A stretch of 64,000 nt of DNA from Candidatus Aenigmatarchaeota archaeon (GTDB lineage: Archaea; Aenigmatarchaeota; Aenigmatarchaeia; CG10238-14). The notes under the pieces are model-generated. The model searched no databases, was not told the DNA's origin, and saw only the letters and a list, made by a program, of their open reading frames with translations. Within the stretch, counting starts at the first letter, position 1. Each line of letters opens with the position of its first letter. The DNA is taken from positions 39,998 through 103,997 of the forward strand of contig JAOAJH010000002.1 in the NCBI GenBank assembly GCA_026414305.1, in the 5' to 3' direction. The position numbers and the translations under genes were made by a program. Positions 6,735 to 58,671 of the stretch are shown here, piece by piece.

Positions 6735-7796
6735 ATGAAATATGTGCTATTTTTTGATATTTTTGATGAATTGGGTGGTGCCGAAAGGGTTGCAATAACT
6801 TTGGCTAGAAAATTAAAGGCTGATATATACACTACATATGTCAATTGGAATCTGTTTGAAAAGGAGCTAAAAGGAATAAAAATAAATGAAATAGGCCTAA
6901 AATTTAAAAATTCAAAACTTCTGACATACAGCGAAATAGCGTGGAGGTTTTCTAAACTAAAATTGCATGGATATGATCACTATCTTTTTATGAGATTATA
7001 TTGCATTTCAGCATCAAAAAACAACCACCCAAATACATGGATATGTTCAAGTCCAATAAGATCTGTTTATGATTTACATGATTTCATCTACAAAAATCTA
7101 AAATTATGGCAAAAACCAATTTTTAAGCTATGGTGTTTAATTTACAAACAATTTGACAAAAAATGGGTTAAAAATTTTGATAATATAACTGCAAATTCCC
7201 AAAATGTTGCAAATAGACTTGAAAAATATTATGGAATCAAAGCCAAGGTGACATATCATCCTGTTGAAGTGGAAAAATACAAGTGCAAAGATTATGAAGA
7301 TTTTTATTTTGCTCCTGGAAGATTTGTTAAAGAAAAAAGAATTGACTTGATAATTAAAGCATTTAAAAAAATGCCTGAAAAAAAACTTATAATAACTGGA
7401 GACGGCCCTGAAAGAGAAAAGCTGCACAAGCTTGCTAAAGATGCTAAAAATATAGAATTTAAAGGAAATGTCAGCTTTGAAGAAATTATAGACTTGTATT
7501 CCAGATGTACGGCAACAATCTACATGCCTGTAAATGAAGATTATGGTCTTGTTCCAATAGAATCAATGGCATCTGGTAAGCCTTGCATAGCGGCAAATGA
7601 AGGTGGTCCTAAAGAGACCATAATAAACGGTAAGACTGGGTTTTTGATAGAGGCTAAAGAGGATGAAATAATAAAATATGTAAATATGCTGACACCAGAA
7701 AAATCCAAAGAAATGAAAAATGAATGCATGAAAAGAGCTAAATTTTTCTCAACTGAGAACTTTATAAAACAAATAAAGACAATAATTGAAAAGTAA
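6735..7796 (+). CDS. Glycosyltransferase family 1 (GT4-type)
   Basis: C-terminal GT1 signature EDYGLVPIESMASGKPCIAANEGGPKETIINGKTGFL. Confidence 0.85.
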   Translation: MKYVLFFDIFDELGGAERVAITLARKLKADIYTTYVNWNLFEKELKGIKINEIGLKFKNSKLLTYSEIAWRFSKLKLHGYDHYLFMRLYCISASKNNHPNTWICSSPIRSVYDLHDFIYKNLKLWQKPIFKLWCLIYKQFDKKWVKNFDNITANSQNVANRLEKYYGIKAKVTYHPVEVEKYKCKDYEDFYFAPGRFVKEKRIDLIIKAFKKMPEKKLIITGDGPEREKLHKLAKDAKNIEFKGNVSFEEIIDLYSRCTATIYMPVNEDYGLVPIESMASGKPCIAANEGGPKETIINGKTGFLIEAKEDEIIKYVNMLTPEKSKEMKNECMKRAKFFSTENFIKQIKTIIEK

Positions 7797-7808
7797 TTTA
7801 TTCTTTCA

Positions 7809-8441
7809 ATGAAATATCAATTTATGAATTTCAAAGAGCATTATGACCGAGTGGGTAAAAAGGAAATAAAGACAATAAACAGAACTGATAGAATAAGATA
7901 TGAAACTTTTGCAAAAATGATAAAAGATGGCTCATCCGTCCTTGACATAGGTTCTAGAGAAGGTGAATTGAAAAATTTTCTTGGAAAAAAATGCAAGTAT
8001 ATTGCAGCTGATATAAGCAAGCCACGCATAGACAGGCTTTTGAAAAAAGGCATTCAGGCGTATTGTTTTGATATTTGTGAACAGCTTCCAGTCGAACTGG
8101 AAAACAAGTTTGATTATGTCGTCTTAGGTGAAGTAATCGAACATCTTACAAGGCCTTATGATGCTTTACTCAATATAAAAAAGGCATTGAATAATAAAGG
8201 GATTCTGATAGGATCTACACCAAATCTTTACTCGCTAAATAGAATGTTGAGCAGACTAATAGGCATGGGTCCTGACAATTATAATCAAGAGCATATAATA
8301 GCTTTTGATGTAGTTGAGCTGAAAAACATGTTAAAATATGCTGGATTCAAGGTTTTAATGATCAAAAGATCCACTTTGATGTATATGCCGATAGATACAT
8401 TTTTCGGTTGGCATATATTTTTTAAGGCTCAAAAATATTAA
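7809..8441 (+). CDS. Class I SAM-dependent methyltransferase
   Basis: Motif I VLDIGSREGEL. Rossmann MTase layout. Confidence 0.75.
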   Translation: MKYQFMNFKEHYDRVGKKEIKTINRTDRIRYETFAKMIKDGSSVLDIGSREGELKNFLGKKCKYIAADISKPRIDRLLKKGIQAYCFDICEQLPVELENKFDYVVLGEVIEHLTRPYDALLNIKKALNNKGILIGSTPNLYSLNRMLSRLIGMGPDNYNQEHIIAFDVVELKNMLKYAGFKVLMIKRSTLMYMPIDTFFGWHIFFKAQKY

Positions 8442-8456
8442 TTTTTTGGTGGTATT

Positions 8457-9452
8457 ATGAAAATACTTGTCACTGGTGGCGCTGGTTTTATGGGTTCTTG
8501 GTTAGTAGACGAACTTTTAAAAAGAGGTCATGATGTAACAAGTGTTGATGATTTAAGTGGGGGTTTTATGAGAAATGTCAACCCAAAATGCAAATTCATA
8601 AAAATGGATGTGAGAAACAAAAAGGGGGTTGACAAGATAGTAAAAGGTGTGGATGTAATATTTCATTTAGCGGCTTATGCGGCGGAAGGGCAATCTGTTT
8701 TTTCGCCGATAGAAATCAACGACATAAATATAACTCCTATGAATAATCTGCTTGTTGCTGCTGTAAATAACAATGTTAAAAGATTTGTTTTCACTTCATC
8801 TATGGCTGTATATGGCGATCAAAAAACACCGTTCGATGAAAGTATGATTCCAAGGCCAGAAGATCCATATGGAATAAGCAAATATTATTGTGAAATGATG
8901 CTGAAAACTTTTGCTGAAACATTTGATTTCGAGTTTGTTGTAATAAGGCCGCATAATGTTTATGGGCCAAGGCAAAACATAGCAGACCCTTTTAGGAATG
9001 TTCTAGGCATATGGATTAATAGAATAATGAACAACAAGCCGCCAATAATATATGGTGATGGGCATCAGACAAGGGCGTTTTCCTTCATCGAAGATGTGAC
9101 ACCTGCTATAGCAAATGCTGGTTTTTATGACAAGTGTGTTAATCAGGTCATTAATGTTGGTAGCGAAGAAGTAACGTCAATAAATGAAGCTTGTAAAATA
9201 GTTTTAGAATCAATAGGGTCTGATTTTGAACCTATGTATGAACCTGCAAGACCAAGAGAGGTCAAGCATGCATTTTGTACAATAGAAAAATCCCAAAAGC
9301 TTCTGGATTATAAAACAAAAAATAATCTCAAAAAAGGTGTTAAAAAGATGGTTGAATGGGCGAAAGAAATAGGTCCGCAAAAACCTTCATACAGAATTCC
9401 TCTTGAAATAACAAAAAAAGCGCCAAAAGTTTGGGTACAAAAATTAATGTAA
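8457..9452 (+). CDS. NAD-dependent nucleotide-sugar epimerase/dehydratase
   Basis: MKILVTGGAGFMGSWLVDELLKRGHDV (GxxGxxG Rossmann). SDR extended family with YxxxK. Confidence 0.9.
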   Translation: MKILVTGGAGFMGSWLVDELLKRGHDVTSVDDLSGGFMRNVNPKCKFIKMDVRNKKGVDKIVKGVDVIFHLAAYAAEGQSVFSPIEINDINITPMNNLLVAAVNNNVKRFVFTSSMAVYGDQKTPFDESMIPRPEDPYGISKYYCEMMLKTFAETFDFEFVVIRPHNVYGPRQNIADPFRNVLGIWINRIMNNKPPIIYGDGHQTRAFSFIEDVTPAIANAGFYDKCVNQVINVGSEEVTSINEACKIVLESIGSDFEPMYEPARPREVKHAFCTIEKSQKLLDYKTKNNLKKGVKKMVEWAKEIGPQKPSYRIPLEITKKAPKVWVQKLM

Positions 9453-10079
9453 TCTTCTAGCTATAACTAACATTTGTTTTGCAAATGGTTTATATGGAGA
9501 TGACAGATATAGATTGAATAAAATTTTATTAAAAAATTTAGTTTCATTTGCTGAGAATGGCAAGAATCTTGGAATTATCTTTTCTATTTCAAACCCACAT
9601 GACGTTAAAATATCCTTTATATTTTTATGAGTCAGTATAGACTTGTGATCGTAATCATCAAAATACTCTCTATAAGCATAAAAATAGTTTGGGCTCAAAA
9701 TGACAAATTTGCCGTCTTTTTTTAAAATTTTATTCACTTTTTTTGATACCAAAAACACTTCATTCATTGTCAAATGTTCAAGCAAATTGCTACAAAATAC
9801 AACATCAAAATACTCTTTTTCAAAAGTTAATTTCTTACAATCTGAAATGTGTTTAATTACATCATTTTTGGCATATTTTAAAGGTATTGGTGATTTATCA
9901 AGTGCATGCTTTTCTTTAACATTAATATTATTTATAAAATAGCAATATCCAGAACCTAAATCTAAAACTTTATAGTCTTTTTTTATTGGAACTTTTTTTT
10001 GAATATATAATGATAATTCTTTCCATATTTTCTCTTTAATTTTTGAATGCTTGAATCTTGTATCAAAATATTTTTCCAT
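9444..10079 (-). CDS. Class I SAM-dependent methyltransferase
   Basis: VLDLGSGYCYF motif I and DVVFCSNLLEHL motif. Confidence 0.75.
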   Translation of the reverse strand: MEKYFDTRFKHSKIKEKIWKELSLYIQKKVPIKKDYKVLDLGSGYCYFINNINVKEKHALDKSPIPLKYAKNDVIKHISDCKKLTFEKEYFDVVFCSNLLEHLTMNEVFLVSKKVNKILKKDGKFVILSPNYFYAYREYFDDYDHKSILTHKNIKDILTSCGFEIEKIIPRFLPFSANETKFFNKILFNLYLSSPYKPFAKQMLVIARRLH

Positions 10080-10080
10080 A

Positions 10081-11637
10081 CTAACACTTGTATATGATTA
10101 ATATTTCTACATTTTTATCTTTGTATGAATATCGATAGCATTTGTTATCTAAAAATTCTCTAGTCTTATCCTCCAAAAATGAATTTGTTCTGTAGTCGAT
10201 AACATAAAAGTTCTTGTTTCTACTGTAAAATTCAGTAAAATTTGAGTATCTTAAATATATGTCAGACTCGTAAAATTTTATTCCAGATTTGAAAGAAATA
10301 TCATGTGAAGTTATTATTGGTGTGTCATTTTCTATGTTCTTTATCAAATTAGACGATATTTCTATAGATTTATAGAATCTTGGCGTAAATATTGGATTTA
10401 CTGCCTCTATAGAAAAATATATGTTTAAAGATATTATCAGTGCTAAAATGTATACAAAAAACAAATCTTTTTTGAATTTCAATAAAACAAATGAAAGTAA
10501 TGTCAAGATATAAGGTATCGATATAAAAACAATATTATTTCTAATGTCTTTTAAAAAAACTACATCTGTCCTAATTTGTAGAAAATATAAAATTGAAAAT
10601 AATAACAAGCATAAAGCAAATATCTCTGATTTTTTTCTTTTAAAATTAATGTTTTTATTTAGATATACACTAGAAATTATTATTATAAAAGGTATTATTG
10701 GGACAAAATATCTAGTTATACCCAAAATTGCTATATGCGGCAATCCATAAAGAAAAATGAAGATAAAATTATGATCAACGCCTTTTTTGAAAAAATATAA
10801 TGAAGATAAAGCAAATATCAATAAAATTGGTGGCGTAAACTCCCATGTTATTATTCCAAAAAACTCGTAAATTTTCCATAAAATGTTTGTTTGGGTTTTT
10901 TCTGACACATTTTTGAAAATATGATTAATTACTGAATAAAAATAATTTATGTTGTGGTAAATTCCAAATATCAAAAGAGATGTAAAAGTTAAAACAAAAA
11001 CTAAAATTGCAAAATTAAATCCTTCTTTTTGTTTCTTCTTATATATTAAAAAAACGATCAAAGAAACAAACCAGGCTATTGATGTTATTTTTGTTAATAA
11101 TGACAATGTTGTAAAAATTGCTGTTAAAAAATAGTATTTTTTTTCTTTTTTGTCTAACCATTTGATAAAAAAATAAGATGAGGCTAAAATTAAAAATGTT
11201 AGAAATGAACCATCTATATCTATTTGTTGTGAATATTCAACGTGAATCCTATTTATTGAAATTAAGAAAGCTGCTAAAAGACCTATTTCTTTTTTTCCAT
11301 AAGAACTACCAATCAAATATACAAAAATTATGGAAAATATGGAAAATATAACGGTAAAAAATCTTACTATAACTATGTTTGTTCCGAAAAATTTTACTAT
11401 ATTTGAAAGATAAATTATATATAATGGTGGGTGATGATCAAAAACAGTAATTAGATTTTCGCCAATTGATTTTTCGTTGTATGTCAATGTTCCTTTATCA
11501 TTAAAATTTATCACTGCTTCTAAAAATCGGCTCTCGTCCCTTTGATAGTCTTTATTCAAGTTTTGTAATCTTAAAATTGATCCTAAAATTAATATTAAAA
11601 TCAATAGAATTATATGTTTATTTTTTTCTGAAAGCAT
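10081..11637 (-). CDS. GT-C fold membrane glycosyltransferase, PMT/ArnT-like (GT39/GT83 type)
   Basis: About 12 TM helices. The first-loop FDHHPPLYIIYL motif is typical of the ArnT/PMT family. Adjacent to a Dpm1-like GT2, which is the classical donor-synthase/transferase pair. Confidence 0.6.
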   Translation of the reverse strand: MLSEKNKHIILLILILILGSILRLQNLNKDYQRDESRFLEAVINFNDKGTLTYNEKSIGENLITVFDHHPPLYIIYLSNIVKFFGTNIVIVRFFTVIFSIFSIIFVYLIGSSYGKKEIGLLAAFLISINRIHVEYSQQIDIDGSFLTFLILASSYFFIKWLDKKEKKYYFLTAIFTTLSLLTKITSIAWFVSLIVFLIYKKKQKEGFNFAILVFVLTFTSLLIFGIYHNINYFYSVINHIFKNVSEKTQTNILWKIYEFFGIITWEFTPPILLIFALSSLYFFKKGVDHNFIFIFLYGLPHIAILGITRYFVPIIPFIIIISSVYLNKNINFKRKKSEIFALCLLLFSILYFLQIRTDVVFLKDIRNNIVFISIPYILTLLSFVLLKFKKDLFFVYILALIISLNIYFSIEAVNPIFTPRFYKSIEISSNLIKNIENDTPIITSHDISFKSGIKFYESDIYLRYSNFTEFYSRNKNFYVIDYRTNSFLEDKTREFLDNKCYRYSYKDKNVEILIIYKC

Positions 11638-12337
11638 ATTTCATCCTTTTTCTGAGAATCAATGAAATCATTTTAAGACCGAGGATAAAAGATTTTCTAA
11701 AATTTGAAGTTATTTTTGATTCACCCTTTCTTTTTCCATAATAGACAGGTATTTCTACTATTTTTAAATTGTTACACATTGCTTCTATTATCATTTCTGG
11801 GGAAAAATGGTTTCCACCAACTTCAAACTTTTTTATTATTTTTTTCAAAGATCTTGATTTTATTGCCCTGTAGGTGCAACCAACATCTGTCAGTCTGACT
11901 TCATGTTCATAGAAAAGCAACTCTATCATTTTTGCAAGAAATATGTTTCCCAATCTTAAAAACCATCCCATTTTTGCACCTGGTTTTACAAGTTGTTTGC
12001 ATGTTCTAGTGCCTAATACCATATCAAAATCGTCCAAATAAGGCAGAAATTTATATACGTCCTTTGAAAAAAAGGTTTGATCTGGCTCAACCAAAAATAT
12101 AATGTCGCTAGTAGCTTCACTTAAACCTCTTCTGCATGCATAACCATAACCCTGATGGAGTTCTTTTACTACTTTTGCACCCGCTCTTTCAGCAATTTCA
12201 GCAGTACCGTCAGTTGAATTGTTATCAACAACTATTATTTCTGTCACTTCTGGTATATTCTTGAAGTCTAAAATAGCCTTTTCTATATTTTTAGCCTCAT
12301 TAAATGCGGGCATCACAATTGATATAGTCTGAGACAC
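11618..12337 (-). CDS. GT2 glycosyltransferase, dolichyl-phosphate mannose/glucose synthase (Dpm1)-like
   Basis: ISIVMPAFNEAKNIEKAI...VVDNNSTDGTAEIAER with a DxD region. Small cytoplasmic GT2. Confidence 0.8.
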   Translation of the reverse strand: MSQTISIVMPAFNEAKNIEKAILDFKNIPEVTEIIVVDNNSTDGTAEIAERAGAKVVKELHQGYGYACRRGLSEATSDIIFLVEPDQTFFSKDVYKFLPYLDDFDMVLGTRTCKQLVKPGAKMGWFLRLGNIFLAKMIELLFYEHEVRLTDVGCTYRAIKSRSLKKIIKKFEVGGNHFSPEMIIEAMCNNLKIVEIPVYYGKRKGESKITSNFRKSFILGLKMISLILRKRMKYAFRKK

Positions 12338-12375
12338 GAAATATAGTTTTATTTTTATAGTTTAATATTTAATCA

Positions 12376-13305
12376 ATGCTCGTATCAATAATAATTCCTG
12401 CCTACAACGAGGAAAGTGACATAAAAGATGTTTTGGAGTCGATAAAAAAGCAAAATTACCCAAAAGAAAACATTGAAACCATTGTAATAGATGACAAGTC
12501 TACAGACAGAACAGCCGAAATAGCTAGAAATTATGATGTAAAAGTTATAAAAGGTCAGCATAAGGGCGTGGGTGCAGCTAGAAATTTGGGAATAAAAAAA
12601 TCTAAGGGTGAAATAATATTATTTGTAGATGCTGACCAGGTTTTAGATAAAAATTATGTTAAAGAAATAACAAAACCTTTCAAGGATAAAAATGTAGGTG
12701 GCGTCACAGGCCTTGAGCTTTTGTGGAACAACAAAAATATAATTGCTAAATTATCGTATTTGAAAAAAAGACTAGGATACGAAACATCTTCATTAGTTCC
12801 TTTGGGTGCAGTTAGAAAAAAAATAATTCAAGAGGTTGGATATATTGATCCAAAATTTGGAATGTATGATGATTGGGAATTTGCTAAAAGGGTTTCAGAA
12901 AAATATAAAATAGTTAGAAATAGAAAGGCTATATTTTATCACAAAGAGCCAACAAATATTAAAAAAATTTACAGGCAGTGTAGATGGACAGCTAAATCCA
13001 CTTTGATGCTTTATTCAAAAAAAGAATTTCAAAAAGCTTTGAGAAATTCAATATTCGTACTAATTAACGGACTATTGCCTCTTTATATAATTTTCCTATT
13101 TTCAAAAAACATGATCTCAGTTTTTGGTTTCATCGGTATAATATTGTTTCTAACTCTTGAATTTTGGAGAAGTTATCAAATTTTCAAAATAACAAAATGG
13201 AAGGTTGCTTGGCTGACCCCATTTTATGATGCTATATACATGATGATTGTTTTAATTGGTATACTGGATATTTTGATTAAAAGAGATTTTAATTTCGGTG
13301 TTTGA
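12376..13305 (+). CDS. GT2 glycosyltransferase with a C-terminal membrane anchor
   Basis: VSIIIPAYNEESDIKDVLESIKKQNYP...VIDDKSTDRT, a DAD motif, and C-terminal TM helices. Confidence 0.85.
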   Translation: MLVSIIIPAYNEESDIKDVLESIKKQNYPKENIETIVIDDKSTDRTAEIARNYDVKVIKGQHKGVGAARNLGIKKSKGEIILFVDADQVLDKNYVKEITKPFKDKNVGGVTGLELLWNNKNIIAKLSYLKKRLGYETSSLVPLGAVRKKIIQEVGYIDPKFGMYDDWEFAKRVSEKYKIVRNRKAIFYHKEPTNIKKIYRQCRWTAKSTLMLYSKKEFQKALRNSIFVLINGLLPLYIIFLFSKNMISVFGFIGIILFLTLEFWRSYQIFKITKWKVAWLTPFYDAIYMMIVLIGILDILIKRDFNFGV

Positions 13306-14072
13306 TTTATATAATCATCATTCATATAATTATTTCAATGATGGAAAGAATCAAAAGAATAATTAAATCAATTTTTGTTTTCAAAAATTGGCCCTTGTAT
13401 TTTACAGAAAAATTTTCAAAAAATAGTTATAGCATTTTTGACACAAGAAAAGGAGTAAAAATAAAAACAAGAAGAGAGACGGCAGATAAAGGAATTATAT
13501 TGGAAATATTTTTTGACAAAACTTATAATCCAAATGATTTTGAAATTAAAGATGGTGACACTGTAATAGATATAGGGGGTCACATAGGAGTTTTTTCACT
13601 TTATGCATCCACATTCACTAGAAACAAGATAATTTGTTTTGAACCTATAAAAGAAAATTTTAATCTATTAAATGAAAACATTAGAATTAACAACAAAAAA
13701 AACATAAAGGCATATAATCTTGCGGTGTGCAATCAAAAAAAGCTGAAAATATTCTTGAATGAAAATAATACAGGTGGTCATTCATATTTTGATAAAACTG
13801 AAAAATATGAAATTGTGAATTGTATAACATTAGAAGAAATTTTTAAAAATGAGAATATTGAAAGATGTAATTTTCTAAAAATTGATTGTGAAGGTTGTGA
13901 GCACAATATAATTCTTAATACACCCTATTACATATTTGACAAAATTGATAAAATATGTATAGAATATCATGATTTCAAAAATTACAAGAAAGAAATAATA
14001 AACTTTTTAAGAAGAATGTCATTTAATATAAAAACAAAAGGTATTTTGATATATGCAAATAAATCAAAATAA
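13302..14072 (+). CDS. FkbM-family methyltransferase
   Basis: DGDTVIDIGGHIGVFSLYAS...CFEPIKENFNLLNENI, typical of FkbM. Confidence 0.75.
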   Translation: MIYIIIIHIIISMMERIKRIIKSIFVFKNWPLYFTEKFSKNSYSIFDTRKGVKIKTRRETADKGIILEIFFDKTYNPNDFEIKDGDTVIDIGGHIGVFSLYASTFTRNKIICFEPIKENFNLLNENIRINNKKNIKAYNLAVCNQKKLKIFLNENNTGGHSYFDKTEKYEIVNCITLEEIFKNENIERCNFLKIDCEGCEHNIILNTPYYIFDKIDKICIEYHDFKNYKKEIINFLRRMSFNIKTKGILIYANKSK

Positions 14073-15104
14073 TCTTTGAAAAATTTGATTAAATGTTTCG
14101 TAACTTTTTTTATATGAGTATTTTTTGCTATTTTTTATACAATAATTTCTTATTTTATTAAAATCGGCACTAATGATATATTTGAGTTCTTCTGGTTGTT
14201 TTAATATAAATCCGTTTACACCATTTTCTATTAGCTCCTTTGGTCCAGGTGCATAATAACTTCCTATTACAGGTAATCCTGAAGCTAACGCTTCAACAAA
14301 AACTCTCCCAAATGATTCATCTGAACTTAAATTAATGAACGCGTCAGAAAATTGAAATATTTTCTGAATATCTTTTTTATTCATAAAACCTTTAAATTCG
14401 TAATCCATAAAGTCCAATTTTTTAATCAAATAATTATAGTAATTCTTATTTTCAATATTTCCAATTATAATCAGTTTTACACTATTTTTTATCGGCTTCA
14501 ACCCATATATTATTTTTTCAATTTGTTTTTCGGGAGATATTCTTCCAACAAAAACCAAAGTAAACTTGGTGTGTTTTAATGGTTTTACTGGTCGTAAGTT
14601 TGATCCATAAAAAAATCTATGTGTTTTATTTTTACCAACAAATATATTAATTTTCCTTGCCTCAAAAGTTGTATCAGCGATTAACAAATCAAACAATTTT
14701 GTATAAATTTTATAGTATAGTTTTTTAAAAAAATTATGATTTTCGATTTTAAAAATGCCATGAAAATGATGAACTATTTTAGTTTTGGGGTAAAAAACTT
14801 TTGTTATTAGGGCAATAAAAAATTCTTTAACACCTTGTATATTTATATATAAAACTTTGGACCTAGAAATTAAATTAATGAAATTAATGAAATTAATGAA
14901 ATTTCTTTTTTTAATTATTATTCTAGATTTTTCAATATTTTTATCAAAATTATGAAAATAAAAAAACAATGGCTTGATTGATTTTTCTTTGCAATACTTA
15001 ATTATTGAATACCTTAATGCGTCTTGATCCATCTCGAGAATCTGATTTAAAGACCTCTTGTTTCTTTCATCAATATAAAATAGAAAATTATCTGACATAA
15101 TCAA
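14064..15104 (-). CDS. Glycosyltransferase family 1
   Basis: EALASGLPVIGSYYAPGPKELIENGVNGFIL GT1 C-terminal signature. Confidence 0.75.
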   Translation of the reverse strand: MIMSDNFLFYIDERNKRSLNQILEMDQDALRYSIIKYCKEKSIKPLFFYFHNFDKNIEKSRIIIKKRNFINFINFINLISRSKVLYINIQGVKEFFIALITKVFYPKTKIVHHFHGIFKIENHNFFKKLYYKIYTKLFDLLIADTTFEARKINIFVGKNKTHRFFYGSNLRPVKPLKHTKFTLVFVGRISPEKQIEKIIYGLKPIKNSVKLIIIGNIENKNYYNYLIKKLDFMDYEFKGFMNKKDIQKIFQFSDAFINLSSDESFGRVFVEALASGLPVIGSYYAPGPKELIENGVNGFILKQPEELKYIISADFNKIRNYCIKNSKKYSYKKSYETFNQIFQRLF

Positions 15105-15144
15105 TACTATACTAAATTAAATTTTAAAGTTTTATTTATTATAT

Positions 15145-16338
15145 ATGAAAATATTGCTATCAAATCAATTTTTTTATAATGTTGGCGGTACTGAAACAAT
15201 GTTTTTCAAATTATTGAATTTTTTAAAGAAAGAAGGTCATGAATTGACTGTAATTACAGTAAAATCTAAAAATAATCTCAACATAAATGGAATAAAGATT
15301 TACTATGTAAAAAGTTATGTACAGCAAAATAGATTTATGTCTCCTTTGAACAGAATATTCAATTATAATTCATACAAAATAACCAAAAAAATAATTGAAA
15401 TGGAAAAACCTGATATAGCTCATTTTTACAATACAAGCTTGATATCACCAAGTCCTATTTTAGCTTGCCTAAAAAATAAAATACCAACAATAAAAACATT
15501 CAATGATTATGAGCATTTATGTCCCGACAGCAGCAAAACAAAATGGTCAAAGTTTTGTGATAAAGAAATGGGCATTTTCAACTGCTTAAAATGCGATAGA
15601 AGAAACGTCAATCCTAGTTTGCTGACAGTGCTATACTATAATACAATAATAAAAAATTTTGAATTGTCTATTTTTAGAAAAACTATAAATGTTTCTATCT
15701 GTGAAACAATTAAGAAAGTTTTGGATCAGTCAAAAATTGACTCGAGAGTAATATACCAAAGTATATATTTGCCGAAAAATATTCCAAAGTTAAAATATAC
15801 AGCAAATATTCTTTATGCTGGAAGGCTTTCAAAAGAAAAGGGTGTGAATTATTTAATAGAAGCTTTCAGTCATTTAAAAAATAAAAATGCAAAACTTTTG
15901 ATAGCTGGTGATGGTCCTGAAAGAAAAAAATTAGAAAATATTGCAAAAAATTATGGTTTATCGCAACGCATAAAATTTCTTGGTTTTGTTGATAAAACTA
16001 CATTGCAAAATTTATATGAAGATATTGACTTTATTGTTTTACCATCAGTTTGGCAGGAACCCTTTGGATTGACAGGTTTAGAAGCAATGTCTTATGGCAG
16101 GCCAGTTATTGCATTTAATGTCGGTGGTATAAGTGAATATGTATCAAATAATGAGAATGGATTTCTGGTTGATGTTTTTGATGTTAAATCATTAGCTGAA
16201 AAAATGGAAACATTATTAAGTGATAAAGATTTGCTTCTAAAATTTTCAAAGAATTCAATAGAAACTTCTAAAAAATTTTCAGATGAAATATTTTACAAAA
16301 GAATCAAAGATTTATACAGAGATGTATTAAATGATTAA
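15145..16338 (+). CDS. Glycosyltransferase family 1 (GT4-type)
   Basis: EPFGLTGLEAMSYGRPVIAFNVGGISEYVSNNENGFLV. Confidence 0.85.
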   Translation: MKILLSNQFFYNVGGTETMFFKLLNFLKKEGHELTVITVKSKNNLNINGIKIYYVKSYVQQNRFMSPLNRIFNYNSYKITKKIIEMEKPDIAHFYNTSLISPSPILACLKNKIPTIKTFNDYEHLCPDSSKTKWSKFCDKEMGIFNCLKCDRRNVNPSLLTVLYYNTIIKNFELSIFRKTINVSICETIKKVLDQSKIDSRVIYQSIYLPKNIPKLKYTANILYAGRLSKEKGVNYLIEAFSHLKNKNAKLLIAGDGPERKKLENIAKNYGLSQRIKFLGFVDKTTLQNLYEDIDFIVLPSVWQEPFGLTGLEAMSYGRPVIAFNVGGISEYVSNNENGFLVDVFDVKSLAEKMETLLSDKDLLLKFSKNSIETSKKFSDEIFYKRIKDLYRDVLND

Positions 16339-19135: not shown

Positions 19136-19225
19136 AAAATCATTTCAAAATTATTTTTATTAAAGATTATTTAAAGATAAAAATTTGTTTATTAATAATT
19201 GTGCTGAAAGTAACAAATTTAAACG

Positions 19226-20776: not shown

Positions 20777-20806
20777 TTTTTATATTTTTTAAAAAATCAA
20801 ATAAGA

Positions 20807-21865
20807 TTGATGAAAATTCTTATAACACATGAAATATTCCCACCTGAAGCACATGGTGGTGGAGAAAAACTCACATACAAAATAGCAAGAGAGCTGATCA
20901 ACAGAGGGTTTAATGTAAAAATTTTAACTTCAGGTGATTCAAAGTTAAAAGAATTTGACGGCATACCCACAAAAAGAATTCCTATAAACAGATATTTTAT
21001 GAATTTAAGTTATCCTATAATAAAAAAAGAGTCAAAAGGCTTTGACTTGATACACACTAGCAGCGGAAACATGTGTTTGCCATCGTACTTTGCCGCAAAG
21101 TCAAACAAAATACCAATATGTTGCTATGTACACCACATATTTGGCGATAATTGGATTGATGTTCACGGTATTTTAGTTGGGGGGTTTTTTCATTTTATGG
21201 AAAAATATTTTCTTACAAGAGATTATGACAGGGTGATATTTCAAAACGGTTTGTCAAAAAAAATTGGATTAAACATGGGTATAAAAGAAAACAAAATGGA
21301 GTTGATTCATCCTGGCATAGATTTTGAAAAATACCAAATAAAAGCAAAAAGAGAAATGAGGGTTTTGTTTGTGGGTAACCTTTGTATGAACCAAAGCACG
21401 TCTAAGATAAAAGGTCTAGACTATTTGCTAGATACTGCAAAATATTTTCCAGATGTTGAATTTTGCATAGTTGGTGAAGGTGAATATCTAAACAAAATTA
21501 GTTCAAGGGTTGGTGAAAATGTCAAGCTTCTTGGAAAAATGAACGAGGAAGAGTTAGCCGTTTTATACAATTCTTCGCTTATTTTATGTCAACCTTCATT
21601 AGCAGAAGGGTTTGGCCTTTCAATATTAGAAGCTATGGCATCAGGTTGTGCAATAGTCTCGACAATAGACATTGGCCAAGTAGATCCAATAGTAAGACCT
21701 AAAAACATAGATGATCTAAAAAAAGCTTTGAATTTGTATATAAACAACAGAAAGTTGGCAGAAAGAAATGGAATGAAGAACAGGAATATAGCCAAGAAAT
21801 TCACATGGAAGAAATATATAGATGATTTGATAAAGATTTATGATAATATAATTCAAAAGAAATGA
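20807..21865 (+). CDS. Glycosyltransferase family 1
   Basis: LAEGFGLSILEAMASGCAIVSTIDIG. GT-B fold. Confidence 0.8.
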   Translation: MMKILITHEIFPPEAHGGGEKLTYKIARELINRGFNVKILTSGDSKLKEFDGIPTKRIPINRYFMNLSYPIIKKESKGFDLIHTSSGNMCLPSYFAAKSNKIPICCYVHHIFGDNWIDVHGILVGGFFHFMEKYFLTRDYDRVIFQNGLSKKIGLNMGIKENKMELIHPGIDFEKYQIKAKREMRVLFVGNLCMNQSTSKIKGLDYLLDTAKYFPDVEFCIVGEGEYLNKISSRVGENVKLLGKMNEEELAVLYNSSLILCQPSLAEGFGLSILEAMASGCAIVSTIDIGQVDPIVRPKNIDDLKKALNLYINNRKLAERNGMKNRNIAKKFTWKKYIDDLIKIYDNIIQKK

Positions 21866-25506: not shown

Positions 25507-25540
25507 TAAGTATATATTTTTATTAAGATTAATATGATTT

Positions 25541-26353
25541 ATGAAATATGATTTAACTGTTTCTATTGTTCTTTTTATAGATAAAAATTATGGTGATTTA
25601 AATGTGTTTAGAAAATGTCTGCAAAGTCTGCTTTCAACGAATTTGAATATGAAAATATTCATAATAGACAACTCCCCTAAAAAAAACAATATACCTGAAT
25701 TTAAAAATAATAATATTGAGTATGTTTTTCTTGGAAAAAACATAGGCTTTGGCAGAGCACATAACATTGCAATCAAAAAATCTAAAGGAATTTCAAAATA
25801 CCATTTAATTTTAAATCCGGATGTTTATTTTGATAAAGACGTGTTAGTTGAATTGAAAAATTTTATGGATTCAAATAATGAAATAGCGGCTGTAAGCCCA
25901 AAGATTTTATATCAAGACGGTAGAATACAACATCTTTCAAAACTTTTACCAAATCCTGTTGATTTGATATTTAGAAGATTTATACCATTTAAGGAATATT
26001 TGAAAAAGAGAAATTGGATATATGAAATGAGATATAAAAATTATGATCAAATGTTCTTTTGTCCTGTAATATCTGGATCTTTTATTTTTACAAGAACTGA
26101 TATTTTAATTAAATTGAAAGGGTTTGACGAGAGATTTTTTTTGTATATGGAAGATGTTGACTTGTGCAGAAGGATGCTAAAGTTTGGTAAGATTGCTTAT
26201 TTTCCTTATGTGAAAGTTTATCATAAATTTGAAAGGGGTTCATATAAAAAACTAAAATACACATTGATTCACATTATCTCGGCAATAAAATATTTTAACA
26301 AATGGGGTTGGATAGACAAAGACAGAAATAAAATAAATAAAAAGTTCATTTAG
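25541..26353 (+). CDS. GT2 glycosyltransferase
   Basis: VSIVLFIDKNYGDLNV...IIDNSP followed by a DxD-like ED region. GT2 fold. Confidence 0.8.
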   Translation: MKYDLTVSIVLFIDKNYGDLNVFRKCLQSLLSTNLNMKIFIIDNSPKKNNIPEFKNNNIEYVFLGKNIGFGRAHNIAIKKSKGISKYHLILNPDVYFDKDVLVELKNFMDSNNEIAAVSPKILYQDGRIQHLSKLLPNPVDLIFRRFIPFKEYLKKRNWIYEMRYKNYDQMFFCPVISGSFIFTRTDILIKLKGFDERFFLYMEDVDLCRRMLKFGKIAYFPYVKVYHKFERGSYKKLKYTLIHIISAIKYFNKWGWIDKDRNKINKKFI

Positions 26354-27320
26354 ATTTGTACCATTTGTTTTTAATGAAATTGAAAATACCTTTTGGTATT
26401 CCAATTGACCATGCGACAGTCCTTACTATGTGTATCATAAAAAGCATGAAAAATTGATTTGGCTTCTCGGCAATTCTGATTGTTTCAATCATATTCAAAA
26501 AAAGAAATGAAAAAAGTGAAATTATGTAAAAAACAATAAATTTGCTTGAAAACATAAAAAGTATTGCTGAAATTAAGGTAAAGTAAAATAGCATCAATGA
26601 TAACGCCATGGAAGATGTTGATATATGATCTCCTTTTATTTTATCAAAATTTTTCCAGTAAGTTAGCGGCGCCATTATAGCATTTTTCATTTGCTGCCTG
26701 AAGAATGATTTCCAATTAGGTCGATGATAGTGATAGACTATTGCGTCAGGAACATACTTCATTTTCCCTAATTTTGTTAATCTGTAACCAAAATCAGTTT
26801 CCCATGCCCAAATAAACCTTTCGTCAAATCTTACTTTTTTTGCATATTTTGTTCTTACACAAAGATTCATGTCAGGTGCCCTTGAAATATATTCTGGGAA
26901 TTTTTTGAACCTGTTTTCTAGCTCTAAACCTATCAATTCTTGAAACTTACTCAACCCCTTTGGTGTCGCACAATAACCAGCTGTCGCAATTATATCATCT
27001 GATGTAAACCCTTTCAACAAATTTTTTAACCAATTCTTATCCAAAACACAATCTGCGTTTGTATAAGCTATGAATTCTGTTTTTGCTATATCAAGTATAT
27101 AATTATGCAATTTTGGTACAGGTCCTGCCATTCTAAGAAGATTTATTTTTTTACCAAACTTTATAAGAATTTCATATGTTTTGTCTGCAGACATGTTGTC
27201 TATGACATAAATAATCTTGTTTTTGTATGTCTGGTTCAAAAGTGATTTAACGCAAGCTTCAATGGTATTTTCAGCATTTTTTACAGGAATAAAAACCGTT
27301 ACTGGCTTTTCTTTTTTCAT
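26346..27320 (-). CDS. GT2 glycosyltransferase with C-terminal TM helices
   Basis: VTVFIPVKNAENTIEACVKSLLNQTY...YVIDNMSADKT and a C-terminal membrane anchor. Confidence 0.8.
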   Translation of the reverse strand: MKKEKPVTVFIPVKNAENTIEACVKSLLNQTYKNKIIYVIDNMSADKTYEILIKFGKKINLLRMAGPVPKLHNYILDIAKTEFIAYTNADCVLDKNWLKNLLKGFTSDDIIATAGYCATPKGLSKFQELIGLELENRFKKFPEYISRAPDMNLCVRTKYAKKVRFDERFIWAWETDFGYRLTKLGKMKYVPDAIVYHYHRPNWKSFFRQQMKNAIMAPLTYWKNFDKIKGDHISTSSMALSLMLFYFTLISAILFMFSSKFIVFYIISLFSFLFLNMIETIRIAEKPNQFFMLFMIHIVRTVAWSIGIPKGIFNFIKNKWYKSK

Positions 27321-27335
27321 TAACTATAATTTGAT

Positions 27336-27824
27336 TTATCGTTTAATATGTTTTTCTAATTTTTCCAAGTATTTTGATAAAAAACCAGACAGCTTGGTTT
27401 TTGAGTTTGTTTGTTTTAATTTATATGATTTTACTATAGCTTGATATAAATTATCAATATCATAAACTCCTATGACTCTACTTTCTTTTTCCATTTGTTT
27501 CACTAATTCCAATTGATGATCATTAACATGCTCGTTATATTTCTTCATTCTTGGTACTGCTATTATTCTTTTCCCAAACATTAATGCTGTAATTATACTA
27601 CCAGCCCCACCGTGTGTTATAACTAAATCAGAGCTTTTATTCAATTCTTTAATTTTCTCATAAGTTTCAAACCTAAACCACTTTGGATTTTTAGGTTCAT
27701 ACTTTGTATTTCCTATTTGAATAATAACTTCATCTTTAATCAAACCGCTGCTTATTAATTCGTCTACTTTTTTTACTAACCTATCAAAGCTGTGTTCATC
27801 TGTTCCTACTGTTACAAAAATCAA
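27336..27824 (-). CDS. Alg13-like (Glyco_transf_28 C-terminal domain) subunit of the UDP-GlcNAc transferase
   Basis: MIFVTVGTDEHSFDRL...LVITHGGAGSIITAL...IIAVPR. Overlaps the Alg14-like gene by 4 nt. Confidence 0.8.
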   Translation of the reverse strand: MIFVTVGTDEHSFDRLVKKVDELISSGLIKDEVIIQIGNTKYEPKNPKWFRFETYEKIKELNKSSDLVITHGGAGSIITALMFGKRIIAVPRMKKYNEHVNDHQLELVKQMEKESRVIGVYDIDNLYQAIVKSYKLKQTNSKTKLSGFLSKYLEKLEKHIKR

Positions 27825-28273
27825 TAAACTGCACCTCGGTATAAAGCTTTCTTACCATATAATTTTAACATGTTTCTCCATTGAACTAGAAACAAATCTG
27901 AAAACGGGTATGAAATTATTCCTGAAAGAGATTTTGTATTTATCCTAGCAAAACTTTCTATAAATATTATTTTTGCATTGAAAAGTAGTTTTCCAATGAT
28001 TATTGATGGTACAGCTGAGCCGGCACCTGTTGAAATTATAATATCTGGCTTTTCTTTTTTCAAAACAAAAAAAGTTTGAATTATATTCTTTAATAATTTT
28101 ATAATACTCCTGCCCGGATTTTCAACAAAGTATATTTTTTCGCCTTTAATTTCATCGACCAAACCTTTCTTATAAAATGTCAGATAAAAATAATTATATT
28201 TTTTATATACATTCTTTAGCTGTAAAACCTCAACTAAATGCCCGCCCATAGAACATGATATACATATTTTCAT
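27821..28273 (-). CDS. Alg14-like membrane-associated subunit
   Basis: MKICISCSMGGHLVEVLQL...DIIISTGAGSAVP, the Alg14 family pattern. Translationally coupled to the Alg13-like gene. Confidence 0.8.
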   Translation of the reverse strand: MKICISCSMGGHLVEVLQLKNVYKKYNYFYLTFYKKGLVDEIKGEKIYFVENPGRSIIKLLKNIIQTFFVLKKEKPDIIISTGAGSAVPSIIIGKLLFNAKIIFIESFARINTKSLSGIISYPFSDLFLVQWRNMLKLYGKKALYRGAVY

Positions 28274-28277
28274 AAAC

Positions 28278-28997
28278 TCACTTGAGTTTTTTAAACAAAG
28301 TTTTTCTTATTTTGTAATAAATCCAAAAATATGGTAATACAAAAAAAGTTAATAGTGAATAAAACGCTTGCAAAAGCTGGAAACCCATGCTTTTTATTAT
28401 TCTCTCTTCTTTGTTATGTTTAACGTAAACATATACATGAGATCTTGCATATTCAAATGATCTAAACATTCTTTTTATAGTGTTTTTATAGTGCGTTACA
28501 AGTCCTTTGTTTATTTGCTTGAATTTGAACCCTCTTTCCTTTAAAGAAAAAAACCAGTCTGTGTCTTCTGCTAGCTTTAGGTTTTTGTCAAATTTAACAG
28601 AAAATGCTTTTTTTGGTATCAATAAACTACCGAAACTTATTATTTCTGCATGAGGTGAAACTATGTTTTGTGCTCCAACTATGATAGTCTTGGTATCTAC
28701 ATATTCGGAATATAAATCTTCAAGCCAATGCTCGTTTGGGACACAATCACTCTCTGTTATAGCTATTATTTCTGATGTTGCTTTTTTAGATAGAAATGTC
28801 ATTGCTTCTGATATTTTCGTTGGTTTGGTGTGATAATATTTCATGTTTAATGTGGTTTCACCTTTGAATATTCTCTCTTTTGAAGAGTCTGCTATTAAAA
28901 CTTCAAAATCTTTGAAAGTTTGGTTTTCCAAAGCTTTAATCAAATCTAATAGTCTTCTATCATCTTTTACTGGAATTATTACTGATATTTTGGGCAT
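28278..28997 (-). CDS. GT2 glycosyltransferase
   Basis: ISVIIPVKDDRRLLDLIKALENQTF...IADSSKE. GT2-A fold. Confidence 0.8.
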   Translation of the reverse strand: MPKISVIIPVKDDRRLLDLIKALENQTFKDFEVLIADSSKERIFKGETTLNMKYYHTKPTKISEAMTFLSKKATSEIIAITESDCVPNEHWLEDLYSEYVDTKTIIVGAQNIVSPHAEIISFGSLLIPKKAFSVKFDKNLKLAEDTDWFFSLKERGFKFKQINKGLVTHYKNTIKRMFRSFEYARSHVYVYVKHNKEERIIKSMGFQLLQAFYSLLTFFVLPYFWIYYKIRKTLFKKLK

Positions 28998-29000
28998 AAG

Positions 29001-30014
29001 TTACACCACCAAATAAAGATAAATAAAAAGCAACATTGTAAAAATAGATTCAAGAAGTATTAATCCTATAGTTACTTGCTTTTCGGTAAATCTTCCCAAA
29101 TTCATTATTACATGCGTCCAAGAATAGATTTTCTTTCCATAAGGTGGTTCTAGCTTACCATCCTTTTGTAGTTTACCTAGGCAAGAAGCTTTCAAACCTG
29201 ATCTCAATTTTAGCAACGCTTCAATGAAAAATGGAATTAATACAATAAAGGCAGCTCTTTCCATGTCACCCAATATTGCGCCTGAAATGACAGCTGCTCC
29301 CATTACATATTGTATGCTATCACCTGAAAGCATTTTTGCAGGTGGCCAGTTAAATTTCAAAAAACCTATTAATGCACCAAGCATTGAAAAGAATATTGCT
29401 GCTGAAACTAGTTTGCCCATGACTAGTGCAAACACACCTAAACCAAAAAAATAAACAGATCCCATTCCTGCTTCTGATCCATTAAAACCGCCTAGCATGT
29501 TTATTACATTTGAAACAACAGTCAGACTTATTGGCACTATCAACAACGGGTAAAGCAAACCAAAATCAACACTGCCTAGTAAAGGTAAAGTCATGGATGT
29601 ATTTCCAGCTCTAACAGCCATTAATGGAATCGCTGCTAGCAAAGTCAGCAACGGTTTTTGCCATTGTTTCAAGCCCTTTCTAATTTCTGATTTTCCTTCT
29701 ATAACCTCTTTAGAATTCAAATCATCAAAAAAACCTATCAAGCCTATGAACAATATTGTCAATACGCCTGAAAAAAGATAAACAAGACTTTCTTCTCCAG
29801 AAAAAACAAATGTTTGTATGGCTGCAAAAAACATCATTCCAAAAAAGGCAGCAAACATTACTGGTATGCCACCACTATTAGCAACTTTAGGTTTGTTTTT
29901 TTTATGCAGATCCAAAGCAATTATGTTGTTTCTGTAAAATAGTCCTATGAATATTTTTGTGAGAATTATTGAAGCTAGAAATGATATTAAAAAACTGCCA
30001 AGTATAACTAGCAT
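29001..30014 (-). CDS. aglH: UDP-GlcNAc:dolichyl-phosphate GlcNAc-1-P transferase (AglH/Alg7; MraY/WecA superfamily)
   Basis: 10-TM protein with an NVINMLGGFNGSEAG variant of the NxxNxxDGxDGL motif, plus GPT/MraY family loops. Confidence 0.85.
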   Translation of the reverse strand: MLVILGSFLISFLASIILTKIFIGLFYRNNIIALDLHKKNKPKVANSGGIPVMFAAFFGMMFFAAIQTFVFSGEESLVYLFSGVLTILFIGLIGFFDDLNSKEVIEGKSEIRKGLKQWQKPLLTLLAAIPLMAVRAGNTSMTLPLLGSVDFGLLYPLLIVPISLTVVSNVINMLGGFNGSEAGMGSVYFFGLGVFALVMGKLVSAAIFFSMLGALIGFLKFNWPPAKMLSGDSIQYVMGAAVISGAILGDMERAAFIVLIPFFIEALLKLRSGLKASCLGKLQKDGKLEPPYGKKIYSWTHVIMNLGRFTEKQVTIGLILLESIFTMLLFIYLYLVV

Positions 30015-32041: not shown

Positions 32042-32176
32042 ATTGAGTTTTCTCTACCAATATTCAACATAAGTGAATTCACGAATATACATTTCATATG
32101 AATGTTTATGCACGTGAAATGAACCTCACCCCTATATATGCTATGGTTTTTTAAATTAAAGATTTATTATTATTAT

Positions 32177-58575: not shown

Positions 58576-58671
58576 GCAGGGGTAGCCAAGCGGCCAAAGG
58601 CGCAGGACTTAAGATTTAATAGGAAATCCTGTCTCTTAGTGAGTTCGAGAGTTCGAATCTCTCCCCCTGCA
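58576..58671 (+). tRNA. tRNA-Leu (anticodon TAA) with a 12-nt intron after position 37 and a long variable arm. CCA is not encoded.
   Basis: Acceptor GCAGGGG/CCCCTGC. Anticodon stem CAGGA/TCCTG with loop CTTAAGA plus inserted ATTTAATAGGAA. T-arm GAGAG-TTCGAAT-CTCTC. Confidence 0.8.

Follow-up and report, generated by a model that had tools for sequence, protein, structure and literature searches.

A likely N-glycosylation gene cluster of a Candidatus Aenigmatarchaeota archaeon, with an EpsE/EpsF-type split glycosyltransferase and an HpnJ-like radical SAM enzyme

The window analysed here is the whole 64,000-nt stretch of contig JAOAJH010000002.1 from a Candidatus Aenigmatarchaeota archaeon, and all positions are window coordinates. 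Between 6735 and 30014 it holds 22 tightly packed open reading frames (ORFs), which we consider likely to form an N-glycosylation (agl) locus of this member of the DPANN archaea. A Pfam scan placed a glycan-related domain on every one of the 22, on one of them (16331-17458) only below cut-off. Such a run of consecutive packed genes is far beyond chance, and the protein-glycosylation island described in a sequence-only reading of this DNA is borne out, with its genes where they had been placed. The core set comprises a PF00953 phosphotransferase, a split pair with PF08660 and PF04101 domains, an STT3 protein and a Polysacc_synt/MatE flippase. The other glycosyltransferases (GTs) are five of family GT2, four GT4-type enzymes of GT-B fold, two clear PMT_2 membrane enzymes of GT-C type and one sub-threshold GT-C-like membrane protein. 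The tailoring set consists of two class-I methyltransferases dependent on S-adenosylmethionine (SAM), one FkbM methyltransferase, one epimerase/dehydratase of the short-chain dehydrogenase/reductase (SDR) type and one B12-binding radical SAM enzyme. The genes and the neighbouring secreted protein are as follows.

2659-6621, minus strand: secreted 1320-residue protein, candidate N-glycosylation substrate (S-layer-like or surface protein); signal peptide, sequons, weak DUF2341 match
6735-7796, plus strand: GT4-type (GT-B) glycosyltransferase; Pfam Glycos_transf_1, 109 bits
7809-8441, plus strand: class-I SAM methyltransferase; Pfam Methyltransf_23, 64 bits
8457-9452, plus strand: NAD-dependent sugar epimerase/dehydratase (SDR); Pfam Epimerase, 178 bits
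9444-10079, minus strand: class-I SAM methyltransferase; Pfam Methyltransf_11, 42 bits
10081-11637, minus strand: GT-C membrane glycosyltransferase of the PMT/PMT_2 superfamily; PMT_2 60 bits, PMT 39 bits, polytopic
11618-12337, minus strand: GT2, polyprenyl-phosphate sugar synthase candidate (AglJ/Dpm1/ArnC-like); sub-cut-off NCBIfam scores, PDB match 5mlz
12376-13305, plus strand: GT2 with C-terminal transmembrane helices (hydrophobic residues 222-306); Pfam Glycos_transf_2, 112 bits
13302-14072, plus strand: FkbM-family methyltransferase; Pfam Methyltransf_21, 71 bits; NCBIfam fkbM_fam, 104 bits (cut-off 37.7)
14064-15104, minus strand: GT4-type glycosyltransferase in the variable part of the cluster; Pfam Glycos_transf_1, 100 bits
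15145-16338, plus strand: GT4-type glycosyltransferase; Pfam Glycos_transf_1, 164 bits
16331-17458, plus strand: polytopic membrane protein, possibly GT-C-like or a polymerase; PMT_2 24.3 bits (cut-off 26.1), about nine hydrophobic segments
17450-19135, minus strand: GT-C membrane glycosyltransferase (561 residues), partner of the radical SAM gene; PMT_2, 45 bits
19226-20776, plus strand: B12-binding radical SAM enzyme, HpnJ-like; Pfam Radical_SAM and B12-binding, NCBIfam HpnJ 415 bits
20807-21865, plus strand: GT4-type glycosyltransferase directly upstream of aglB with a 4-nt overlap; Pfam Glycos_transf_1 74 bits, Glyco_transf_4 64 bits
21862-24054, plus strand: AglB/STT3 oligosaccharyltransferase; Pfam STT3 (PF02516), 85 bits
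24031-25506, minus strand: flippase candidate of the MOP superfamily (Wzx/AglR-like); Polysacc_synt 35.6 bits, MatE 32.5 bits
25541-26353, plus strand: GT2 glycosyltransferase; Pfam Glycos_transf_2, 40 bits
26346-27320, minus strand: GT2 (324 residues) with C-terminal transmembrane helices (residues 235-309); Pfam Glycos_transf_2, 70 bits
27336-27824, minus strand: catalytic half of a split GT28-type transferase (PssE/EpsF/Cps14G family; Alg13 homologue); NCBIfam PssE, PF04101
27821-28273, minus strand: N-terminal half of the split transferase (PssD/EpsE/Cps14F family; Alg14 homologue); NCBIfam PssD, PF08660
28278-28997, minus strand: GT2 between the phosphotransferase and the split pair; Pfam Glycos_transf_2, 43 bits
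29001-30014, minus strand: polyprenyl-phosphate N-acetylhexosamine (HexNAc)-1-phosphate transferase of Alg7/AglH/DPAGT1 type (priming enzyme); PF00953 (Glycos_transf_4), 99 bits

Some counts change with this inventory. The further glycosyltransferase genes, previously put at about 12, number nine (the four GT4-type and five GT2 genes), and two class-I methyltransferases rather than three were found, at 7809-8441 and 9444-10079. The GT-C at 17450-19135 and the weak GT-C-like protein at 16331-17458 had been overlooked. The FkbM methyltransferase, the epimerase and the B12-radical SAM enzyme all carry the domains ascribed to them. The SDR protein scores under the cut-offs of the NCBIfam LegB, TviC and GalE models, so that an epimerase and a 4,6-dehydratase are indistinguishable here. 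The window has a G+C content of about 30%, with a trough of 24-25% at 10-18 kb (10000-18000) between flanks of about 30-34%; the trough coincides with the part of the cluster that varies in gene content. Archaeal housekeeping genes lie on both sides of the cluster (RadA, RPA, NAC, family-B DNA polymerase, Cdc6/Orc1, Nop5 and fibrillarin).

The product of 21862-24054 matches Pfam STT3 at 84.9 bits (cut-off 24.5) over residues 34-409 and has at least 13 hydrophobic segments. The motif DYDPWFFYR of external loop 1 (EL1), singled out in the earlier reading, occupies residues 38-46, and the catalytic acidic residues are kept. D38/D40, D153/D155, SVAE288 (S285-E288) and WWDPGH (442-447) are invariant across an 11-sequence alignment of the AglB family, as are the motif SxDLIGKxTW (539-548) and eight cysteines of the C-terminal domain. 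D40 aligns with the Asp of EFDPYF in STT3A, D153/D155 with the D-N-E of STT3A and WWDPGH with the WWDYG of STT3A and STT3B, while E288 was assigned by pattern only as the [ST][IV]xE residue of external loop 5. We regard this protein as a genuine AglB/STT3 with predicted oligosaccharyltransferase activity. DMGK (residues 480-483), considered as the DK motif, was dropped since its Lys is not conserved and the consensus in relatives reads RIQDMGRIM. About 95 residues separate WWDPG from the DK-like motif (within residues 460-600), and the eight invariant cysteines (C464, C469, C508, C528, C572, C573, C586 and C600) fall within or just past that stretch, an arrangement suggestive of disulfide bonds or of metal binding by the external domain.

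Priming of a lipid-linked glycan would fall to the protein encoded at 29001-30014, whose only PDB matches in a phmmer search at E<=1 were human DPAGT1 entries (best E = 2e-10). It carries the motifs GFFDD, NVINMLGGFNGSEAG and SGD (as LSGD); NVINMLGGFNGSEAG and LSGD align with NAINILAGINGLEAG and FVGD of DPAGT1. The motif NxxNxxxGxNGxE of eukaryotes and archaea is also present, the bacterial counterpart of which is DGxDG. A role of MraY type, in pseudomurein or peptidoglycan synthesis, was rejected on scores of 44-45 bits with the NCBIfam MraY models, whose cut-offs are 192 and 450. The protein is of Alg7/AglH type rather than MraY/WecA type, as had been claimed, and may use UDP-GlcNAc and dolichyl phosphate as donor and acceptor. 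It is the only priming-type enzyme found in a Pfam scan of the locus ORFs, a polyprenyl-phosphate HexNAc-1-phosphate transferase (PNPT) of PF00953. NCBI records of the source metagenome-assembled genome (MAG) and its relatives label it 'hypothetical protein'. In Sulfolobus, the function of AglH as priming phosphotransferase has been shown by enzyme assay or complementation (PMC5222938).

The GT28 fold is split between the two adjacent genes at 27336-28273, which overlap by 4 nt (27821-27824). Pfam Alg14 (PF08660) matches the N-terminal half at 75 bits and Glyco_tran_28_C (PF04101) the catalytic half at 78 bits. Both halves pass the cut-offs of NCBIfam equivalogs: PssD (NF041549, also Cps14F) at 136.4 bits against 110, matching positions 1-150 of 151, and PssE (NF041548, also Cps14G) at 149.3 bits against 120, matching positions 1-139 of 146. 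Their similarity to EpsE and EpsF of the Lactococcus (L. lactis/L. cremoris) plasmid pNZ4000 amounts to 41% identity (94 bits) and 44% identity (115 bits), respectively, compared with 34% identity over the full length (62 bits) between the catalytic half and human ALG13. A hydrophobicity scan found no N-terminal membrane anchor of the Alg14 kind on the N-terminal half (150 residues, starting MKICISCSMGGH), which covers the Pfam Alg14 profile only at positions 73-170 of 171, and a PDB sequence search with this half returned nothing meaningful. In published phylogenies (Lombard 2016, PMC4973528; Meyer et al. 2022, PMC8993221) split EpsE/F-like sequences from Euryarchaeota and DPANN lie scattered among bacterial ones, and the eukaryotic Alg13/14 proteins branch with Asgard sequences. 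By pairwise scores, with vertebrate ALG13 as the eukaryotic comparison, by the equivalogs and by these phylogenies, the pair is a true Alg14/Alg13 homologue and yet belongs to the prokaryotic EpsE/EpsF (PssD/PssE, Cps14F/G) branch. The split and the overlap noted in the sequence-only reading stand, and its eukaryote-like label does not. NCBI names the N-terminal half 'ALG14' and the catalytic half 'beta-1,4-galactosyltransferase', the latter by homology only.

These three enzymes bear directly on the proposal that the locus encodes a eukaryote-like Alg7-Alg13/Alg14-STT3 core that builds a methylated N-glycan on N,N'-diacetylchitobiose (GlcNAc2). Homologous superfamilies do act at all three steps in both systems: the phosphotransferase is like DPAGT1/Alg7 and has Alg7-type motifs, the GT28 fold is split and matches the Alg14 and Glyco_tran_28_C families, and the DPWFxYR and SxDLIGKxTW motifs of AglB resemble DPWFNYR and SSDDINKFLWM of eukaryotic STT3. 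A profile of the AglB family scored higher on eukaryotic STT3 (52-63 bits) than on AglB-L of A. fulgidus (AfAglB-L; 43 bits) or PglB (22-25 bits), a ranking that is suggestive but stops short of a phylogeny, since the solved-structure matches included no AglB of full length from TACK, Asgard or DPANN archaea. The acceptor expected here, HexNAc-PP-dolichol, would also be nearer to the Alg13/14 substrate than is the glucose (Glc)-PP-lipid used by EpsE/F. Against these points, the split pair is nearer to bacterial EpsE/F by scores, equivalogs and phylogenetic placement, its Alg14-like half is without the anchor and AglB has WWDPG in place of WWDYG. The double sequon of eukaryotes and TACK archaea (NNTWNNT-type) was not seen after WWDPG, no domain of an oligosaccharyltransferase accessory subunit was found by Pfam among the scanned ORFs and there are no assignments specific to Alg1, Alg2 or Alg11. 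According to PMC8993221, which cites Nikolayev 2020, DPANN AglB moreover differs from the eukaryote-like type of TACK and Asgard archaea. Characterised EpsE/F-type enzymes use a Glc-PP-lipid acceptor and add Glc or galactose (Gal) in beta-1,4 linkage (PMC8993221), and a glucuronosyltransferase is named both by the NCBIfam model WelK and in the annotation given to a homologue on a Rhizobium plasmid. A GlcNAc2 core therefore does not follow from the gene families. The safe inference is a second-step transferase acting on a lipid-linked first sugar, with beta-1,4 linkage by family precedent, and not a 'chitobiose synthase'. As a whole we judge the eukaryote-like core unlikely; the label suits the Alg7-type primer and, loosely, STT3, but not the split pair.

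Synteny in relatives was mapped with tblastn, using the window proteins on 13 aglB-centred loci (numbered L001 onward), 11 of which have a full-length aglB. The closest AglB (85% identity) is from the MAG Candidatus Aenigmatarchaeota archaeon DRTY-6_1_bin_65; in twelve further MAGs the protein is 51-74% identical (seven Aenigmatarchaeota, four uncultured archaea and one short contig labelled Micrarchaeota). The order GT-C (561 residues), radical SAM, GT4, AglB, flippase, then GT2 (324 residues) and the split pair further along, is kept in L001-L004, L006 and L008 within the reach of each locus (L003 stops inside the GT2 gene); in the syntenic Aenigmatarchaeota MAGs AglB is 53-85% identical. 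The split pair is then followed by the GT2 and the phosphotransferase in the two closest loci. A homologue of the GT-C at 17450-19135 occurs in all 11 loci with full-length aglB, and the GT4 at 20807-21865 stands upstream of aglB in eight of the 11 (L001-L004 and L006-L009). The GT2 at 26346-27320 is 57-92% identical in the six syntenic loci, and the GT2 at 28278-28997 keeps its position with 96% identity in L001 and 71% in L002. The left part of the cluster (about 6.7-17.5 kb) varies in content even where conserved genes are 85-97% identical. The GT4 at 14064-15104 has no orthologue in L001 or L002 by tblastn, the membrane protein at 16331-17458 is absent from L001 and 55% identical in L002, and L001 has one extra methyltransferase. 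Other genes of this part do recur: the GT4 at 6735-7796 (62-75% identity in L003, L004, L006 and L008), the GT2 at 12376-13305 (conserved across the Aenigmatarchaeota loci) and the GT4 at 15145-16338 (96% in L001). Such variability is the pattern expected of a glycan locus diversifying between strains. In L007, RadA matches in two pieces about 1.5 kb apart (18306-18797 and 20295-20807), which suggests an intein or other insertion. Under the label 'candidate division WOR-3 bacterium', a 47,256-bp contig carries Alg14-like and radical SAM proteins 95-98% identical to those of the window and members of the 90%-identity clusters of the window's Alg13-like protein and phosphotransferase (P0004, P0241, P0363 and P0367 in all); the probable reason is that a contig of Aenigmatarchaeota was mis-binned with a bacterial MAG.

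Variable content and low G+C in the left half are also features of O-antigen loci, and they raise the question of whether the locus, wholly or in part, makes a surface polysaccharide or glycolipid by a Wzx route, with aglB merely adjacent. The flippase candidate called Wzx in the earlier reading is well supported as a MOP/Wzx protein (Polysacc_synt and MatE scores above their cut-offs of 28.2 and 24.9, more than 12 hydrophobic segments) and diverges faster than its neighbours, being 64% identical in L001 where they are 85-97% identical. An EpsE/EpsF-type pair would fit such a route, and the polytopic protein at 16331-17458 could be its polymerase. However, aglB is embedded in the cluster, where it shares 4 nt with the GT4 gene upstream, and its neighbours stay the same in Aenigmatarchaeota and in other DPANN. 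The Pfam scan found no Wzz, tyrosine-kinase or export component among the locus ORFs, and N-glycan diversification would equally be expected to make gene content vary. Archaeal agl genes, moreover, typically flank aglB. Polysaccharide or glycolipid synthesis as the function of the locus is on this evidence quite improbable.

A natural acceptor for AglB would be the secreted protein next to the cluster (2659-6621), previously called the obvious substrate. It has a signal-peptide-like N-terminus and no C-terminal transmembrane segment, and contains 28 N-X-S/T sequons against 16.2 +/- 3.7 in shuffled sequences (z = 3.2). Its density of 2.1 sequons per 100 residues compares with 0-0.85 in 28 of the 29 other proteins counted, the remaining one being a 106-residue ORF that is nominally denser (2.8 per 100) from three sequons only. 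In L007 a homologue with 31% identity is encoded some 1.3 kb downstream of aglB, and in L004 RPA is followed by the first GT4 gene without a giant secreted protein between them. Since the protein is not at this position in other relatives, its adjacency is weak evidence; a role as AglB substrate is plausible, and the secretion signal and sequon enrichment are consistent with it.

The genes at 10081-11637 (GT-C) and 11618-12337 (GT2) had been described as a back-to-back pair typical of O-mannosylation. The families are those named, but the two genes are co-directional and overlap by 20 nt. The highest NCBIfam scores of the GT2 are 107 bits for AglJ (cut-off 325) and 86 bits for a dolichyl-phosphate (Dol-P)-hexose transferase (cut-off 375); its best PDB match is the Dol-P-mannose (Dol-P-Man) synthase of Pyrococcus (5mlz, E = 4e-8), and ArnC is also similar. 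Because of these resemblances it is a reasonable candidate for a polyprenyl-phosphate sugar synthase. The polytopic GT-C exceeds the Pfam cut-offs for both PMT_2 and PMT, and found no PDB sequence match and no NCBIfam PMT match; a usable PDB match was obtained with neither of the two large GT-C proteins. A dedicated system of protein O-mannosylation, with a Dpm1-like synthase and a PMT-like transferase, would agree with the Pfam scores, with the operon-like overlap and with an archaeal Dol-P-Man synthase as the best solved relative of the GT2. The claim rests, however, on the broad PMT/PMT_2 superfamily, GT-C families that include lipid A transferases of ArnT type along with numerous enzymes not yet characterised. 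The Pfam scan reported no match on the GT-C to the MIR domain, a feature of PMTs in eukaryotes, the top GT2 score is for AglJ, an N-glycosylation enzyme, and the pair sits in the variable part of the cluster. An equally good fit is provided by Haloferax, in which AglD, a GT2 that makes Dol-P-Man, and AglS add the last sugar of the N-glycan outside the cell. The acceptor of this GT-C may thus be protein Ser/Thr, an N-glycan in the AglD/AglS manner or a lipid; O-mannosylation is one option among several, not specifically supported, and as a dedicated system we consider it very improbable.

The reading that we favour, an agl locus, allows the following pathway to be proposed from the gene content, families, catalytic motifs and synteny; the sequence in which the steps occur, the carrier lipid, the identity of every sugar and the protein substrate are predictions. 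The Alg7/AglH-type phosphotransferase would first place HexNAc-1-phosphate on dolichyl phosphate at the cytoplasmic face of the membrane. To this the split EpsE/EpsF-type transferase would add a second sugar, which could be GlcNAc, Gal, Glc or glucuronic acid, and the soluble or peripheral GT2 and GT4 enzymes would extend the lipid-linked glycan. The two class-I methyltransferases, the FkbM methyltransferase, the SDR enzyme and the HpnJ-like B12-radical SAM enzyme would tailor the sugars or their precursors, and the MOP/Wzx-like flippase would bring the glycan to the outer face. There the GT-C proteins (10081-11637, 17450-19135 and perhaps 16331-17458) would attach more sugars, drawing on Dol-P-sugars that membrane-associated GT2s such as 11618-12337 would supply. 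Finally, AglB would transfer the glycan to the Asn of N-X-S/T sequons, for example those of the neighbouring 1320-residue protein.

Known agl clusters include aglB-aglJ/G/I/E/D/S/R of Haloferax volcanii, the agl genes of Methanococcus and AglH/Agl24/AglB of Sulfolobus. The window shares with archaeal clusters an AglB/STT3 amid GT2 and GT4 genes, methyltransferases, a MOP flippase candidate and a Dol-P-sugar GT2 with a GT-C, and with Sulfolobus a priming phosphotransferase of AglH type (PMC5222938). It differs in having a conserved HpnJ-like B12-radical SAM enzyme and an uncultured DPANN host, and in using a split EpsE/EpsF-type pair where Crenarchaeota have a fused Agl24 at the second step (PMC8993221). 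The resemblance to the bacterial EpsE/EpsF genes of pNZ4000 lies in two small overlapping genes, N-terminal half then C-terminal half, near a priming transferase. In pNZ4000, however, a 'sugar transferase' gene precedes pssD, whereas the primer in the window is a polytopic Alg7/AglH-type HexNAc-1-phosphate transferase. For this reason the acceptor is expected to be HexNAc-PP-dolichol and not Glc-PP-undecaprenol, and no small non-PNPT primer, of the kind that would precede PssD/PssE acting on a Glc-PP-lipid acceptor, was found among the locus ORFs. The product also probably goes to AglB and not to a polymerase.

Several points weigh against an agl locus as the full account. The AglB motif is WWDPG and not WWDYG, and the Asp of SxDLIGKxTW lies one residue off that of SSDDINKFLWM, in a low-scoring segment that is not significant alone. 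Within the flank examined, the phosphotransferase adjoins the cluster only in the two closest relatives. Bacterial exopolysaccharide pathways, too, typically contain EpsE/EpsF pairs and Wzx flippases, so that a polymer not linked to protein could be the product of part of the locus, and a polymerase could be encoded at 16331-17458, whose membrane protein is unassigned. The donor of the split pair is not readable from its sequence, the sugars of all the glycosyltransferases are predictions, and we know of no biochemical or glycoproteomic evidence for any DPANN N-glycan.

The truly unusual element of the locus is the HpnJ-like radical SAM enzyme (19226-20776) with its usual GT-C and GT2 neighbours, and not Alg13/14. 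It matches the NCBIfam HpnJ model (TIGR03471) over its full length at 415 bits, the next model being BchE at 167, and is 35% identical to annotated HpnJ proteins. A bona fide HpnJ identity was set aside: the score is under the cut-off of 577.6, and neither shc nor hpn genes were found among the locus ORFs, where the neighbours are glycan genes. DPANN MAGs contain close homologues in abundance, and a LAGLIDADG intein domain is present in some of these (837-859 residues). From this material (proteins P0245, P0250 and P0351 and loci L015-L021), six homologue-centred loci were examined: one from Micrarchaeota, one from Nanoarchaeota and four further contigs, several with archaeal marker genes. A GT2 gene lies immediately downstream in four of the six (in a fifth it follows a small ORF and a methyltransferase gene), and a divergent PMT_2 GT-C gene immediately upstream in four of six; the GT-C is divergent to the radical SAM gene both in the window (17450-19135) and in L015-L018. 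Within 8 kb, STT3 was found in three of the six loci, a PF00953 phosphotransferase likewise in three and an Alg14/Glyco_tran_28_C pair in two. The GT2s beside the homologues were rejected as HpnI-like, their matches being generic GT2 models with MftF on top. Glycan neighbours extend to the best bacterial match, on plasmid 1 of Lawsonia intracellularis (40% identity), which is surrounded by GT2 genes, GalE, five class-I methyltransferases, a second radical SAM gene, HAD and GHMP-kinase genes and a DUF2142 membrane protein.

HpnJ, an enzyme of hopanoid cyclitol-ether synthesis, and the archaeal calditol synthase (Cds) of Sulfolobus have been proposed to contract the ring of a lipid-linked hexose (PMC13459092). 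The window enzyme has the same B12-binding and radical SAM architecture and is likewise found with a GT2 by which a sugar could be attached to a lipid; it differs from HpnJ in its score, in the lack of hopanoid genes nearby and in its glycan neighbours. Given the chemistry proposed for HpnJ and Cds, a sugar-modifying role on a lipid-linked intermediate is a reasonable hypothesis. More specifically, and only tentatively, the radical SAM enzyme, GT-C and GT2 might together make a radical-modified sugar (a ring-contracted carbocycle or a C-methylated sugar) on dolichyl phosphate, which the GT-C would transfer to the N-glycan outside the cell; we rate this as possible but somewhat doubtful. Plain B12-dependent C-methylation is the conservative alternative. 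No description of an association of such enzymes with glycan genes, or of such tailoring of N-glycans, was found in the literature searched. The association is the part of the locus likeliest to lead to new chemistry and a pointer to an undescribed sugar modification.

In other respects the locus is a real, complete but ordinary archaeal N-glycosylation cluster, whose sequence is already public and machine-annotated. Our findings mostly confirm what published phylogenies and automatic annotation imply. Surface glycoproteins of DPANN archaea are believed to act in their attachment to hosts and, to our knowledge, neither the structure of an N-glycan nor its pathway is established for any of these archaea. 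The cluster offers a compact and conserved DPANN parts list that could be rebuilt in a heterologous host: a primer of Alg7 type, a second step of EpsE/F type, three GT-C candidates, a flippase and AglB. It is relevant as well to the debated origin of eukaryotic Alg13/14, in that an Alg7-type primer, a split pair and STT3 form the eukaryotic combination, here assembled with a pair from the prokaryotic EpsE/F branch. The rarity earlier attached to this complement is not sustained, as DPANN split EpsE/F-like homologues are already present in phylogenies (PMC8993221) and the cluster core is kept in Aenigmatarchaeota MAGs.

Two further features lie outside the cluster. A free-standing LAGLIDADG_3 ORF at 32138-32827, between the genes of a TctA-family transporter and the family-B DNA polymerase, is 60% identical in L001. 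Rfam places two adjacent tRNAs at 58576-58671 and 58697-58782; ARAGORN finds the second only, as tRNA-Leu (CAG), and the first, with a span of 96 nt, may include an intron.

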